Source of the DNA: Spirochaetales bacterium
Lineage (GTDB): Bacteria; Spirochaetota; Spirochaetia; SZUA-6; RPPD01
Reading direction: 5' to 3'
Assembly: GCA_016934415.1 (NCBI GenBank)
Contig: JAFGSW010000039.1
Span: 4,224-68,223, forward strand
DNA length: 64,000 bases
In this document: positions 1,190-61,427 of the stretch, piece by piece
Layout: every line of letters starts with the position of its first letter
Numbering within the stretch: position 1 is the first letter of the stretch
The notes under the pieces: model-generated
Told to the model about the DNA's origin: nothing
The model's database searches: none
What the model saw: only the letters and a program-made list of their open reading frames with translations
Made by a program: the position numbers and the translations under genes

Positions 1190-1380
1190 AGTGAACCACG
1201 GATTTACGCGGATAAGACGGATAATCACGGATAAGGTAGGGAGCAGGGAGAAAATACAAGCGCATTTATATTTCGTCATGACATCCTTTTTTTTTCATTC
1301 CCTTGTTCTCTGCATTTATTTCCAATTCTCTTCCCTTTCCTATCCGTGTCATCGGCTGCATCCGTGTCATCCGTGGTTCC
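1190..1380. repeat. intergenic inverted-repeat element, CACGGAT(AA) family
   Basis: Left arm holds three ACGGATAA units, the centre is AT-rich, and the right arm carries ATCCGTG units. The right arm encodes the aminotransferase C-terminus. Confidence 0.6.
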
Positions 1381-2665
1381 CTATCTCCTCCGCCGCGGCG
1401 AAGATCTCCTTGAACATCTCCTCCAGGTCCTCCTCGTCGACCGAGGCGAAGCTCACGCGGAGGAGATCCGGTCCGAGGGCGATGACGCCGACGCCCCGTT
1501 CCTTGAGGAGCCGCTCGCGCAGGGCGGGGGCGTCGACGCCGTCGGTGCGGAAGGCGACGAAATACCCCGAATTGAAGGGCAGGGGACGGAGCCGGGCGGA
1601 CGGGGAGCGTTCGAGAATCGCCTTCACCCTCCGATACCGCCGCTCCAGTTTCCGGAAGGCCTCCCGCTTCTCTTCCTTGTACGCCTGGTTCCCGAGGAGC
1701 CGGACGAGCAGGCTTTGCGCCGGCATCGAGGCGGACGACACCGAGGTGCGGACGGCGGCGAGGCATTTCTGCTCCAGGGCGTCATAGTGTTCCCGCGCCA
1801 GCCCTTTGGACGCCAGGGTGATGAAGCCGATCCTGAACCCCCAGGCGAAATCCTCCTTGGTGGCGCCGTCGACCTTGCAGGCCAGGATGTTCTCATGCAG
1901 GCCGGCCAGGCGCGCGAACAGGGACTGGCGAAAAAGGCCGTCTTCGTAATAAAGCCCGAAATAGGCGTCGTCGACGATGACGAGGAGCCTCCGTCCCCGC
2001 CGGGCGGCGGTCAGGAGCACGTGTATCAGTTGTTCTGTTTCTTCATTATATAAAGAGTATCCCGTCGGGTTGTGGGGAAAATTGAGAATGAGAATCGTCT
2101 TCCCCGGCGCGGCCGCGTCCGAAAGACGCCTCTCGATTTCCGAAACGTTGAATTTCATGTCCGCGCCGAAGAGGCGAAACGTCGACCAGGCGGCGCCTTT
2201 TTTTATTTTAAAGATGAGCTCGTAATTTTCCCAGGCCGGTTCCGCGCAGAGGAGCGTATCGCCTTCGTCCGTGAAGAGGTCGGCGGCCACCGCCAGGCCG
2301 TGGGTGACGCCCGCGGTGACCAGGGGCAGCGTGGAGGCGACGCCCCCGAGGTCGGGATTTTTTTCGATGTGTTCCCGGCGCCAGATACGGCGCAACTCGG
2401 GGATCCCGCCCGTGGGCGCGTAGTCGACGCATTCCGCCGGGCTCAAACCCCGCCACGCGGCACCCAGCGAGGGGAGCAGGAACGGCGCGTTCTTTTCCTT
2501 GGCCACCCCGGCCGTGGCGTTGAAGCGCGGCTTCGCCCGGCCCGCTTCCTGCGCCTGGGCGGTGATTCCCCTGGGGAAATAGAGCATTCGGCCCTGTTTC
2601 GACAGAAGGGACTCGACGATCGTGCCCTGAAAATGGCGGTTGAGGTCCTCGGCGAGGGGATGCAT
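1367..2665 (-). CDS. PLP-dependent aminotransferase class I/II
   Basis: 432-aa ORF with NFPHNPTGY-type motif and length typical of the family. Confidence 0.8.
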   Translation of the reverse strand: MHPLAEDLNRHFQGTIVESLLSKQGRMLYFPRGITAQAQEAGRAKPRFNATAGVAKEKNAPFLLPSLGAAWRGLSPAECVDYAPTGGIPELRRIWRREHIEKNPDLGGVASTLPLVTAGVTHGLAVAADLFTDEGDTLLCAEPAWENYELIFKIKKGAAWSTFRLFGADMKFNVSEIERRLSDAAAPGKTILILNFPHNPTGYSLYNEETEQLIHVLLTAARRGRRLLVIVDDAYFGLYYEDGLFRQSLFARLAGLHENILACKVDGATKEDFAWGFRIGFITLASKGLAREHYDALEQKCLAAVRTSVSSASMPAQSLLVRLLGNQAYKEEKREAFRKLERRYRRVKAILERSPSARLRPLPFNSGYFVAFRTDGVDAPALRERLLKERGVGVIALGPDLLRVSFASVDEEDLEEMFKEIFAAAEEIGNHG

Positions 2666-2868
2666 GGCCTTGAAGGATAGCCGCTCGAATTGAGCTTGTC
2701 AATTGGAGGTATTCGTATTATAGTAATCCGTCGCTTGGGGGGCCGGCGGCATCCTCGAAAACAACGAAGAGTGACGCCCATTGCGAATCTATTGACTTTA
2801 CAAATTATCTGTGTTAAGGTCAGGCCGCATTTTTGGAAGGCAAAAATAGGGAAACTCGGGAGGTGAGC

Positions 2869-3327
2869 ATGGATACGAAGGAGATAATCGACCTCTTTGA
2901 GAAATTCGAAAACAGTTCGTTAAGCGAAATATCGATAAAAAAGGGCGATGTCGAAGTCATGATGAAAAAAGGCGGCGTGGAAAAACCGGTCGCCTACGTC
3001 GAACGTCGCGCCGGGTCCGTGGCGCAACCCGCCGCGGCCGCGCATCCGATTCAGAATACAGACGCTCCGGCCCGGAACTCGAACGGTCACGAGACGATCA
3101 ACTCGCCCATGGTGGGAACGTTCTACAGGGCTCCCGCTCCCGACGCCCCGCCGTTCGTGGACGTCGGCGCCAGGGTGAAAAAAGGCCAGACGCTCTGCAT
3201 TCTGGAAGCGATGAAGCTGATGAACGAGTTCGAGGTCGAATTCGATTGTGAAATCGTGAAAATACTGGTCGAAAACGGCAAAATGGTTGAGTTCGGAACG
3301 CCGCTCTTCGAGGTCAAGAAGACATGA
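2869..3327 (+). CDS. accB: biotin carboxyl carrier protein of acetyl-CoA carboxylase
   Basis: EAMKLMNE biotinylation motif; GGGAGGTG SD 5 nt before the ATG at 2869; first gene of the acc operon. Confidence 0.85.
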
Positions 3328-59835: not shown

Positions 59836-59916
59836 CTGATTTTCTCTTTCCGCTTCTATCCATAATGCTTCATCTTGTATACGAATGCACTCTATGGCGG
59901 GCGGGATGCCCGCCAT
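59836..59916. repeat. ~80-bp conserved intergenic repeat ending in GC hairpin (copy B)
   Basis: Same orientation and a similar position upstream of a minus-strand gene. Confidence 0.6.
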
Positions 59917-59971
59917 TTCTCTATCTTCTTAATCTTCCCTATCCGTAGTTTTCAAAGCCCTCCCCGGAACG

Positions 59972-61192
59972 TCAGCGGTACGGTTTCTTCCGGAAGGACT
60001 CGTCACGGCGGCAGGCTTTCTCGTAGTACTCCCCGGCCGCGGCCTTGTCCCCCAGCTTGAATTTGGCCATACCAAGGTAATAGTCGCTCTCCGCGTCGTC
60101 GAAGCCCAGGCCGCGGGCCTTCATAACGTCCTGCAGGCCAGGGGCGGCGTCGCCCGCCTCTATCCTGGCCGCGCCGCGGTTATGGATCGCCAACAGCTCG
60201 TTCGGGTTCAACGCCAGGGCCGCGTCGCAGTCGGCGACGGCGCCCGAGTAGTCGCCGCTGAGCGTCTTGATATCGGCCCGGTTGACGAGATAGCCCGTCT
60301 CTTTCGGATCGAGCCTCACCGCGGCGTCCAGATCCGCCAGGGCGCCCGGGTAGTCGCCCCGGCTTCTCTTCAGGAGCGCGAGCGCTCCGTAGGGCGGCGC
60401 CGAGTGAGGATCGAGCTCGATCGATCGCCTGTAATCCATCTCCGCCCCCGCCGGGTCGTTGCAGCCTTCCTTCGCGACGCCCCGGTGAAAAAACCACTCC
60501 GCCCGTTTGCCGTCGAGGCGGATCGCCCGATTGAAATCCTCCAGCGCCGCCTCGTACCGTTCCTGCCGGTTCCGGCAGAGCCCGCGCAGGAAGTAAGCCA
60601 TCGGCTGGAAGGGATCGATTTCAAGCGACGTCGAATAGTCCTCAATGGCCTTGTCGTCCATCCGCAGGAGCCACTCGGCGATGCCGCGGTTGAAATGCCA
60701 TTCGGCGTCCCCCGGTTTGAGCGCGATGGCTTGGTTGAAATCCGCGAGGGCGGCCTCGTTGTCACCCAGCATTCCGGAACAGATCCCCCGACGGAAATAG
60801 ACCTTGGGGTCCTGCTTCGGGTTGAGCGAGATGCTTTTGGAGTAGTCGGCGATCGCGCCCTTGAGGTCGCCGAGCCCTTCCCTGGCGGCACCGCGGTTGT
60901 AATAATAGAAGTAAAAGTCCGGATCGAGCTCTATCGCCTTGTTGAAGTCTTCGAGGGCCGCTTTATCGTCGCCCGCCCATCCCTCCATGAGCCCCCGCCA
61001 GGAATAGGCGCGGGCGTCGCCCGGGTCGAGCTCGATGGCCCGGTTGAGATCGGCCAGGGCGCCTTCCCTGTCCGTGTCCATTTTCTCAATGGCCCGATCG
61101 ACGAAATCCTTGGCCGTCGTTTGGGCGGAAAGGAATCCGCCGGCCGCGAAAAAGAGCGCGGCTGCGCACAGGACCGGGAAAAATCTTTTCAT
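59972..61192 (-). CDS. secreted TPR repeat protein
   Basis: Signal peptide followed by more than 8 TPR units. Confidence 0.8.
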   Translation of the reverse strand: MKRFFPVLCAAALFFAAGGFLSAQTTAKDFVDRAIEKMDTDREGALADLNRAIELDPGDARAYSWRGLMEGWAGDDKAALEDFNKAIELDPDFYFYYYNRGAAREGLGDLKGAIADYSKSISLNPKQDPKVYFRRGICSGMLGDNEAALADFNQAIALKPGDAEWHFNRGIAEWLLRMDDKAIEDYSTSLEIDPFQPMAYFLRGLCRNRQERYEAALEDFNRAIRLDGKRAEWFFHRGVAKEGCNDPAGAEMDYRRSIELDPHSAPPYGALALLKRSRGDYPGALADLDAAVRLDPKETGYLVNRADIKTLSGDYSGAVADCDAALALNPNELLAIHNRGAARIEAGDAAPGLQDVMKARGLGFDDAESDYYLGMAKFKLGDKAAAGEYYEKACRRDESFRKKPYR

Positions 61193-61427
61193 GGGAACGC
61201 TCCTTCACGGCGCGGCGTGCCCGACCCGCGGTCGTCGTATCAAACAGCATAGCGCCGGGGAGCGCGGATTTCAAGATAAGGATGGCACGGATGGGGGAGG
61301 GGGAGGTGGAAAAATCAAGGTATGCGATGTATTACATCCAGACTTGATCGTGTTTCATCACAGCGCTCAGTTTTTCACCGAAATAAAAAATGTAATCGTA
61401 CGGCGGCGGCATCCGTCTCGAATCTAT

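Follow-up and report, generated by a model that had tools for sequence, protein, structure and literature searches.

Arrays of short purine-rich units at gene junctions of a Spirochaetales genome, and related arrays beside GxxExxY genes in other bacteria

Introduction

Several kinds of short repeats are known from bacterial DNA. Miniature inverted-repeat transposable elements (MITEs) of bacteria include Correia/NEMIS, RUP, ERIC and Nezha. The cyanobacterial short tandemly repeated repetitive sequences (STRR) are short tandem heptamer units in intergenic DNA, sometimes in opposed arrays. In the intervening sequences of 23S rRNA, a long stem closes a loop, and this loop may contain one small gene of a widespread "selfish" family. 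Here, we analyzed elements that consist of a purine-rich arm, an AT-rich centre and a pyrimidine-rich arm, and that lie at gene junctions in 64,000 nucleotides of a Spirochaetales bacterium (GenBank assembly GCA_016934415.1, contig JAFGSW010000039.1, positions 4,224 to 68,223). This whole stretch is called the window below, and positions are counted from its first letter.

In the system of repetitive extragenic palindromes (REPs), a gene-less majority of copies is thought to depend on a single-copy gene, and the copies are transcribed as mRNA hairpins (PMC3733652). The window repeat belongs among the palindromic extragenic repeats. Because the same arrays flank a GxxExxY gene in other bacteria, we read the window elements as related to GxxExxY-associated hairpin elements but gene-less (non-autonomous), and as forming long stem-loops in the mRNAs with which they are co-transcribed; we consider this reading about evenly poised between right and wrong. 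The relation of the window elements to the GxxExxY units may be likened to that of REPs to the genes of REP-associated tyrosine transposases (RAYTs).

Elements at the Gene Junctions of the Window

A sequence-only reading of the window had reported purine-rich/AT-rich/pyrimidine-rich elements at gene junctions and divided them into three families. The elements are real. The pattern CGGAT-N3-6-CGGAT occurs 18 times in the window. Dinucleotide shuffles give 2.48 ± 1.39, none of 100 being as high as 18, and 16 of the 18 matches fall inside the elements listed below. A scan for 40-nt segments of at least 80% purine or pyrimidine recovers these elements and little other intergenic DNA. In total, the window holds 6 complete inverted-repeat elements and about 7 lone arms at gene junctions:

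1191–1382: complete element at the junction of a dihydropyrimidinase-like gene and an aminotransferase gene, both on the minus strand; purine-rich arm 1191–1254 with GAACCACGGAT and 4 CGGAT units, then an AT-rich centre, then pyrimidine-rich arm 1313–1382 with terminus ATCCGTGGTTC
12177–12366: complete element 3' of rsmA; 4 CGGAT units per side, AT-rich centre
44150–44215, plus strand: lone purine-rich arm, AACCACGGAT CAAACGCGGAT ..., upstream of leuC; kept in relative L001
45803–45946: complete element, leuC-leuD junction; outer units GGAAACCAGG / CCTGGTTTCC, 96% complementary over 26 nt
46603–46740: chimeric element, leuD-ilvD junction; left arm of CACGGAT type with 4 units, right arm 46689–46740 of CTTCGTG type
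48486–48502, plus strand: solitary outer unit GGGATCCGTGGTTCTCC, immediately 3' of the ilvD stop codon
49849–50019: element, htrA-uvrB junction; purine-rich arm AACTACGGAT plus 2 GCGGAT units; reaches the uvrB ribosome-binding site
52086–52199: element after uvrB; GGAAACCAGG ... CCGGTTTCC / CCTGGCTTCC; 41-nt arms, 71% complementary
54219–54270, plus strand: purine-rich arm of GGAGATGGGG/GAAGATGAGG units, left edge of a split element enclosing a DUF4332 open reading frame (ORF)
54278–54964, minus strand: DUF4332 ORF, cargo between the arms; AT-rich, 687 bp, Pfam E 3.5e-20
55005–55109, plus strand: pyrimidine-rich arm of the split element, holding CCCCATCCGTAGTTCCC and TTCATCCGCAGTTTC outer-type units
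56163–56205, plus strand: lone purine-rich tract CGGATGGGGGAAGATGAGG; weak partner only, at 56240–56300
58262–58350, plus strand: two direct purine-rich tracts, GTAGATGAGGGAAGAT / GGATAGGGAAGATGAGGAGGATGGGG, with a GC hairpin of 20-nt arms between them (58288–58329)
59907–59953, plus strand: lone pyrimidine-rich arm, terminus CCCTATCCGTAGTTTTC, preceded by a GC hairpin (59893–59917)
61262–61309, plus strand: lone purine-rich arm (GCGGAT...GGATGGCACGGATGGGGGAGG) adjoining a RAYT-like ORF; no convincing partner arm

The earlier list of members has to be adjusted. Six members are complete, but those placed at 44150–44215, 56172–56200, 58262–58345 and 61262–61309 lack a convincing inverted partner, and the tracts at 58262–58350 are direct rather than an inverted repeat of arms. 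The CACGGAT arm described at 46597–46672 is present, and it does have a right arm (46689–46740), but one of the other unit type. The arms at 54222 and 55014, taken before as one element, exist as well; however, the 687-bp AT-rich ORF lies between them and their complementarity is weak, scoring 42 against 33 ± 5 in a composition-matched control. The outer unit at 48486–48502 and the pyrimidine-rich arm at 59907–59953 had been overlooked.

In the element at 12177–12366, a 30-nt core is 87% complementary. The purine/pyrimidine inner stem of 49849–50019 spans 40 nt at 70% complementarity, and its outer pyrimidine-rich unit, ATCCGTAGTT, lies at 50006–50015. A GTAG-type GC hairpin (44118–44142) abuts the lone arm at 44150–44215. 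The centres of the elements are AT-rich, as had been stated (29–45% GC), but the window has 61% GC rather than the approximately 64% given for the genome. It was also correct that arm units encode the C-termini of two neighbouring proteins, stop codons included: the final 4 codons and stop of the aminotransferase (GNHG*) come from the outer unit of 1191–1382, and the RsmA C-terminus and stop (...EGTTDGHGLDG*) are encoded within the purine-rich arm of 12177–12366.

Arm Grammar

The arms of CACGGAT type are versions of one sequence of about 45 nt, GRGAACCACGGAT-nnn-CRCGGAT-nn-GACGGAT-nn-CACGGAT-RGG. Arms of different elements are 80–88% identical over about 44 nt, which equals the likeness of the two arms within one element. 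The centres gave no alignment between copies. In the general layout, units are 9–10 bp long, the outermost one is preceded by AAC (GAACCACGGAT ... ATCCGTGGTTC), and two arrays face each other across a variable centre. The unit consensus is CAC-RRAK, which in the window is mostly CACGGAT. CAC-RRAK arms with at least 2–3 units at 9–10 bp spacing and the outer end AACCAC / GTGGTT are found in 1191–1382, in 12177–12366 and in the left arm of 46603–46740; they are also found in 49849–50019 (as the variant AACTAC) and in the lone arms at 44150 and 48486, and in part in the GGAAACCAGG and GGGGAAGATGAGG types.

The division into three separate families was found to be over-split, since one grammar covers them all, with purine-rich units of 8–10 bp throughout. 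In the GGAAACCAGG type, the outer motif AACCA-GG recurs, and the GGGGAAGATGAGG type has a right arm that terminates in ATCCGTAGTT as the first family does; the arm at 59907–59953 ends likewise. The pyrimidine-rich arm at 55005–55109 terminates in CCCCATCCGTAGTTCCC.

Occurrence in Other Phyla and in Viral Contigs

We scanned a 596-Gb collection holding one genome per GTDB species with the pattern ATCCG-N3-6-ATCCG-N3-6-ATCCGTRGTT. At least 119 stretches in at least 8 phyla were found, against an estimated chance number of about 35 for the whole collection. Among the matches listed, most were from Verrucomicrobiota, and others came from Planctomycetota, Acidobacteriota, Bacteroidota, Alpha- and Betaproteobacteria, Hydrogenedentota, Gemmatimonadota and one Spirochaetaceae metagenome-assembled genome (MAG). 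Single MAGs labelled Bifidobacterium and Thermoplasmatota, also among these matches, may be binning errors. A scan of viral contigs (IMG/VR) gave at least 120 stretches, often several per contig. The cultured phage and plasmid collections gave few matches, namely unannotated gut phage contigs and Bacteroidales chromosome fragments filed as plasmids. Isolate genomes carry the arrays too: BLAST found hairpins between housekeeping genes in isolates of Parabacteroides distasonis and Bacteroides finegoldii, and the motif also occurs in a Hymenobacter isolate genome.

The matches share features that lie outside the scan pattern. Inverted partners were found 14–414 bp away (40 pairs), fourth and fifth units occur, and the outer flank is purine-rich and then T-rich. 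Where arrays are adjacent in the scanned genome and viral loci, the purine-then-pyrimidine order was seen 97 times and the reverse 36 times. Other unit tails occur in the same loci (CACGAAG/T, CACAGAG/T, CACTAAT, CGCAGAT and CACGGAG), again with the outer end AACCAC / GTGGTT. As an unbiased background, and not for orthologous junctions, we used metagenome loci chosen via LeuD homologues 50–60% identical to that of the window; 331 kb of these loci held 2 arrays. The sequence-only reading had staked itself on the arms recurring elsewhere, and they were found in relatives and in many phyla.

Two further observations concern individual loci. CGCGAAG/CGCAAAG units at 9–10 bp spacing occur in two LeuD-chosen metagenome contigs (L166 3106–3129 and L183 2918–2940), so the grammar has further variants. 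Near-identical elements in tandem, recurring at intervals of about 270 bp or about 850 bp, were seen in a Verrucomicrobiota MAG (L034 4521–5210) and an Isosphaeraceae MAG (L078 2990–4080); these copies show recent local amplification, unlike the old, diverged copies of the window.

Intergenic DNA that encodes nothing is, to our knowledge, hardly ever conserved from one phylum to another. A 20–30 nt intergenic motif is nevertheless common to spirochaetes, the Planctomycetes-Verrucomicrobia-Chlamydiae (PVC) group, Acidobacteriota, Bacteroidota (human gut species too), Proteobacteria and viral contigs, and such sharing points to an active, horizontally moving system.

Association of the Arrays with GxxExxY Genes

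When the ORFs of the array-selected genome loci were clustered all against all, one family stood out. It is a protein of about 120 residues that scores 6.5e-37 against NCBIfam TIGR04256, "GxxExxY protein"; its counterpart in Pfam is PF13366, PDDEXK_3. ABC ATPases, sigma factors and response regulators, all of common housekeeping type, made up the other recurrent clusters. The GxxExxY gene is present at 8 array-selected loci; it lies within an arm pair at L017, L030 and L073, and between two complete hairpins at L041, L066, L069 and L078. In L030 and L073, a Luteolibacter MAG and a Pirellulaceae MAG, arms and gene share about 80% DNA identity over about 450 bp, and the flanks are unrelated.

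Homologues 72–91% identical to the Pirellulaceae GxxExxY protein occur in Dissulfurirhabdus, Bacillota, Gammaproteobacteria, Syntrophobacteraceae, Hydrogenedentes and Mariprofundales records. Since identities of this level span distant groups, the protein comparison points to horizontal transfer of GxxExxY. Four GxxExxY genes were then chosen with protein similarity as the sole criterion, and arrays lie on both sides of each of them at a distance of 0–160 bp:

Dissulfurirhabdus: CACGGAT type, inside a BREX-like SNF2-PglZ operon
Bacillota MAG: CACGGAT type, arranged hairpin-gene-hairpin
Syntrophobacteraceae: mixed CGCGGAT, CGCAGAT and CACTGAT units
Mariprofundales: CACGAAT type

At about 25 arrays per 100 kb, the density of array-rich genomes, the chance per 500-bp neighbourhood is about 0.12, which puts four of four at a probability of about 2e-4.

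In Dissulfurirhabdus thermomarina (JAAGRR010000028.1; L332 / L333), the GxxExxY unit with its arrays is placed between a SNF2-family helicase gene and pglZ. The called ORFs overlap by 4 bp, and hence the arms are inside annotated coding sequence.

A sequence search of the PDB with GxxExxY gave no match, and a fold search found a generic PD-(D/E)XK core only. The family is very large, with more than 7,000 cluster representatives at E ≤ 1e-10 among the matches listed. In the open-access literature, no paper was found in which the motif is printed or GxxExxY is connected with flanking repeats, the curated comments of TIGR04256/PF13366 being outside this search; "GxxExxY", "PDDEXK_3" and "PF13366" are mentioned there in passing only, in three papers.

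The layout of the arrays could also be explained by protein binding. They would then be iterons on double-stranded DNA, phased sites around an easily melted AT-rich core, bound by a recombinase (at arm-type sites) or by a nucleoid or partition-like protein. A spacing of 9–10 bp is one helical turn, the core CAC-RRAK is common to the units, the centres are AT-rich, and fewer than half of the arrays lie in a recognisable inverted pair. Small genes in a centre or between two elements are also what site-specific recombination would leave. However, the 4-nt tail of the unit varies (GGAT, GAAG, AGAG, TAAT), which one conserved host protein would not tolerate, and GxxExxY is the only candidate gene that recurs beside the arrays. 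The elements are not at promoters, and ten sites in 64 kb are too dense for an origin or a centromere. We consider the iteron explanation unlikely; it overlaps with the reading as GxxExxY-associated elements if GxxExxY is itself the binding protein.

Gain, Loss and Arm Replacement in Close Relatives

Contigs of relatives were obtained via LeuD homologues, and their leu junctions were compared with those of the window:

L001: LeuD 87% identical to that of the window; orthologous element at leuC-leuD; element present at leuD-ilvD
L201: LeuD 80%; at leuC-leuD a 58-bp gap with a pyrimidine-rich remnant only; leuD and ilvD overlap, no element
L204 / L205: LeuD 69%; at leuC-leuD an unrelated 51-bp gap, no element; htrA follows leuD
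L202: LeuD 67%; at leuC-leuD a 13-bp gap, no element

In L204, a CACGGAT-type element occupies another junction, leuD-htrA. Elements are gained and lost among close relatives, and the presence/absence differences that the sequence-only reading had proposed to look for were found at leuC-leuD and leuD-ilvD.

The leuD-ilvD element has also changed in part. Its centre and right arm are orthologous between the window and L001, but in the left arm all units differ, with CACGGAT in the window where L001 has CACGAAG; the orthologue in L001 is thus of the CACGAAG/CTTCGTG type on either side. The left arm of 46603–46740 is identical to the left arm at 1191 in 37 of 44 positions. Since this arm changed its type and matches the arm at 1191 so closely, sequence has moved between loci, by insertion or by conversion.

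A stretch of about 180 nt upstream of leuC (window 44200–44383; L001 880–1056) lies within an alignment to L001 whose overall identity is 82%, with ATAGATCATCTCCGCAACTTTTTGTATATTC included; it has no Rfam match. This region may be a leader or regulatory region for leuCD.

Duplications, Transposases and Cargo

Target-site duplications had been suggested as a check, and none was found in 94 AACCAC...GTGGTT pairs: abutting direct repeats numbered 2 at k = 2 (5.9 expected) and 1 at k = 3 (1.5 expected). Instead, the stems extend outward by variable lengths, by at least 4 nt in 8 of those 94 pairs against 0.4 expected. A TA duplication of the IS630-like kind was considered separately and rejected, as only 37% of arms have a T in front of AACC and abutting repeats are at chance. 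No transposase lies between arms in 239 genome and viral loci, and ORF clustering gave no recurrent transposase family among the 119 array-selected genome loci. A single IS481 was found; it is bounded by ends of its own and has been inserted into the centre of an element.

The MITE-like reading put forward from sequence alone is plausible. In its classical form, the elements would be internally deleted copies of an insertion sequence (IS) with a DDE transposase, moved by cut-and-paste. Conserved terminal inverted repeats of about 45 nt, a size of 130–200 bp, the intergenic position and a presence that varies among relatives all suit this form. The classical features are absent, however: there is no duplication and no transposase between the arms, the lone IS481 is an insertion, the stems end at variable points, and the centres are unrelated rather than homologous. 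We judge classical MITEs to be a very improbable explanation.

The absence of a target-site duplication is what HUH transposases predict, and the elements might then be REPIN-like (paired REPs in inverted orientation), an unusual REP family moved by a RAYT. A lone arm of the window adjoins the remnant of a RAYT-like ORF, whose match to NF047646 (E 1.5e-12) is below the family cut-off. At 44118, 56319, 58288 and 59893, GC hairpins of GTAG type lie against an arm or within one. Long inverted repeats around Y1 transposases are moreover known as "TIRtrons" (PMC3733652). However, the remnant has its own, different palindrome (GTAGAGACGCACGGCCGTGCGTCTCTAC) and not arrays on both sides; the arms are not palindromic themselves and carry no GTAG or CGTC tag. 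Clustering of the ORFs from the 119 array-selected genome loci gave no group of Y1 transposases, and a REP sequence is normally confined to one lineage rather than cross-phylum. This explanation seems to us improbable.

Genes and other insertions occur in several elements. A DUF433/DUF5615 toxin-antitoxin pair is the cargo at L112, and REP-like GC hairpins are among the insertions in elements elsewhere. The hairpin-gene-hairpin arrangements recall integrons, and one could take the elements for attC sites without integrase, into which cassettes enter via a folded single strand. In favour of this are hairpins of 70–200 bp with AAC / GTT outer ends, and the PVC ends TTTTAAC...GTTAAAA fit 6 of 7 positions of RYYYAAC/GTTRRRY. 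The window ends GGGAAC / GTTCCC, however, violate the R-box rule, and 3–4 phased units are unlike the R/L box layout. No integrase was found in the scanned window ORFs (about 21 of some 60, Pfam/NCBIfam), there is no Rfam match (whether Rfam includes an attC model was unchecked), and the elements are scattered between housekeeping genes instead of being stacked as cassettes. Of all the explanations weighed here, attC sites are the least probable.

The DUF4332 ORF of the window belongs to an 894-bp island (54213–55106) with 37% GC in a 61% GC genome. The nearest homologues of its protein are few and 46–50% identical. The one homologue whose context was examined (P0123) lies in a low-GC contig without arms, which stems from sediment metagenomes of the study series that also yielded L001. 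These features suggest that the island was recently acquired horizontally. DUF4332 as a regular cargo was rejected: a 50%-identical homologue sits in a low-GC organism without arms, and DUF4332 is therefore an insertion into an element and not part of one.

Folding and Transcription

Folding was compared with shuffled sequence for two elements, 1191–1382 and 12177–12366. The RNA of 1185–1385 folds at −71.1 kcal/mol, against −44.5 ± 4.2 for the shuffles (z −6.4), and that of 12170–12375 at −88.7 against −50.5 ± 4.3 (z −8.9). Together with the excess of units over shuffles, these values support the inverted symmetry statistically. No element was called in a scan for intrinsic terminators, which found 11 terminator-like sites in the whole window where 11.9 are expected; as had been supposed, the elements are not ordinary terminators. 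The search against Rfam found 0 matches, both for the window at the gathering threshold and for four array-rich loci at E ≤ 0.1.

For 8 of 8 spirochaete elements between co-directional genes, of which 6 are independent, the sense strand gives a better fold than the antisense strand. Outside spirochaetes, the sense strand is better in 12 of 34 elements and the antisense strand in 20, with rough gene calls. The evidence for selection at the mRNA level is mixed: it is seen in the spirochaete lineage and is not general. The spirochaete asymmetry could also be caused by a transcription-linked C-to-T bias. In other phyla, the genes flanking the elements are tandem in 34 cases, convergent in 4 and divergent in 4. 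In the chimeric element, CACGGAU still pairs with CUUCGUG via one G-U pair.

The elements had also been read as structured RNA or mRNA hairpins. If so, they could be structures that the host evolved and kept for the use of its mRNA, as a barrier to 3'-exonucleases, as an RNase III site or to set the leuC/leuD expression ratio, with no mobility. The 8 of 8 count, the pairing preserved in the chimeric element and the mostly co-directional flanks elsewhere are consistent with this, and the window and L001 agree in where the elements lie and, for the most part, in their sequence. However, a local hairpin would not share a 10–20 nt motif across at least 8 phyla and viral contigs; whole units are common to different phyla, and lone arms are frequent. 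The preference for the sense strand does not hold elsewhere, a mutational bias is possible where it does, and the elements have neither an Rfam match nor a terminator signature. We regard this origin as no likelier than the iteron one, that is, as unlikely.

Other functions were considered and set aside. A sponge for CsrA (A-N-GGA motifs) was rejected because other unit types have no GGA and the motifs are base-paired. DnaA boxes, promoters of extracytoplasmic function (ECF) sigma factors, the 16S 3' end and the tRNA T-arm gave no consistent match.

Proposed Mechanism and Significance

How the elements move we infer as follows. The arrays would be cis sites acted on by the predicted GxxExxY nuclease or by a host recombination pathway, and GxxExxY would be the sole gene of the element where a gene is present. 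Spread would proceed via break-and-repair or recombination between arrays, homing-like or gene-conversion-like and not by cut-and-paste; this type of spread is proposed because duplications are absent, a whole arm changed its units, chimeric arms exist, and small genes lie in centres or between hairpins. Centres and flanks may act as landing places for small foreign genes, such as DUF4332 here and toxin-antitoxin pairs and REP hairpins elsewhere. An element inserted between co-directional genes would be co-transcribed and fold into an mRNA stem of 40–70 bp, which is probably a determinant of processing or stability. Since the sense-strand evidence is mixed, the mRNA stem-loop is likely a consequence of insertion and not the reason for the cross-phylum conservation.

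Several observations weigh against the window elements being gene-less relatives of GxxExxY units. The window and the short contigs of the relatives have no GxxExxY gene by tblastn. Neither an excision event nor a recent identical copy was observed, and the copies in the window are old and have diverged. Loci selected by their arrays carry a bias towards CACGGAT, and the protein-selected test comprises four independent loci, all from one close clade of the GxxExxY family. The low share of arrays in recognisable inverted pairs, below half, suits a protein-binding array equally well. Finally, the window unit types GGAAACCAGG and GGGGAAGATGAGG have no CAC core and are tied to the class by architecture and outer units only.

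More tentatively, and with clearly less confidence than in the kinship itself, arrays and GxxExxY together may represent a pan-bacterial, phage-borne and undescribed class of mobile elements, which would move by nuclease-initiated recombination and have left hundreds of gene-less hairpins as landing pads.

The GxxExxY link offers a testable role, cis sites with a nuclease, for a very large protein family without known function. Annotation is affected as well: the elements lengthen or truncate ORFs (aminotransferase, RsmA), they sit in operons (leuCD), and a regulatory RNA or a terminator can be called in their place. In genome evolution, they provide small genes of defence or addiction with a path into housekeeping loci.

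Neighbouring Features

The RAYT-like ORF (61428–62153, minus strand) matches NF047646 in its C-terminal part only. Three GTAG-tagged palindromes, (C)GTAGAGACGCACGGCCGTGCGTCTCTAC(G), lie at 61672–61695 (inside this ORF), 62183–62212 and 62252–62286. The ORF and the palindromes look like a decayed REPtron, distinct from the array elements.

Small GC-rich REP-like hairpins (e.g., TATGGCGGGCGGGAYGCCCGCCAT and GTAGTGCGGGCGTCCCGCCCGCAC) were seen beside or inside arms at 44118–44142, 56319–56343, 59893–59917 and 58288–58329 of the window, and in other phyla as well; the further positions are L112 3775–3800, L235 about 6495–6520 and L204 about 1855–1880. REP dimers nested in longer palindromes have been described (PMC3733652), and the hairpins beside the arms recall them.

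The segments 56245–56352 and 59820–59953 are homologous, intergenic and about 100 bp long, and both lie between minus-strand genes. They read …CTGATTT(C/T)C…TCCGCTTC(C/T)ATC…TGTATAC(A/G)AATGCACTCTATGGCGGGCGGGA(C/T)GCCCGCCAT…CCGTAGTT. A TTGTATA-type promoter-like box occurs in both of them and also upstream of leuC and htrA.

At the 5' end of uvrB (50014–50161), there is no ATG, GTG or TTG between the in-frame stop codon at 50011–50013 and residue 38 of the UvrB model. The Shine-Dalgarno sequence at 50038–50044 is perfect (AAGGAGG); ATC (50050) follows 5 nt later, and then DFKVTADF. In the relatives, AAGGAG is followed at the same place by ATT (L204, about 3300–3330) or ATC (L202, about 6770–6800). 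These sequences suggest that uvrB starts at a conserved AUY codon in this clade.

Comparison with Known Systems

Bacterial MITEs resemble the window elements in being 100–250 bp long and intergenic, with terminal inverted repeats; they are transcribed along with their neighbours, whose ORFs they can extend or end, and their presence varies between relatives. The window elements differ from them in having no duplication, no parent IS and no homologous centres, and their arms are made of sub-repeats. Integron attC sites are imperfect palindromes of similar size with AAC/GTT ends and variable middles, and small promoter-less genes lie between hairpins, as in the array elements; the latter, however, have no integrase, no cassette array and no R/L box layout.

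The intervening sequences of 23S rRNA differ in location, since the window elements are outside rRNA. In contrast to the contiguous heptamers of STRR, the units here are 9–10 bp long with a variable spacer. Iterons of plasmids and origins are repeats of 17–22 bp beside a rep gene or DnaA boxes, whereas here units of 9–10 bp occur at no fewer than 13 sites in 64 kb; no rep gene was among the window ORFs scanned (about 21 of some 60).

The closest analogue is the group of REPs, bacterial interspersed mosaic elements (BIMEs) and REPINs. Like the window elements, they are short, extragenic, hairpin-forming and multicopy, and they lie mostly downstream of coding regions and between co-directional or convergent genes. 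Inverted dimers, which fold into larger structures, are frequent among them, and target-site duplications are lacking (PMC3733652). They differ in that the window arms are arrays of direct 9–10 bp units rather than palindromes and have no GTAG/CGTC tag. The array elements are moreover cross-phylum, and their gene is the PD-(D/E)XK nuclease GxxExxY and not an HUH Y1 transposase. Finally, the centres of the array elements are long and AT-rich, and they can hold genes.

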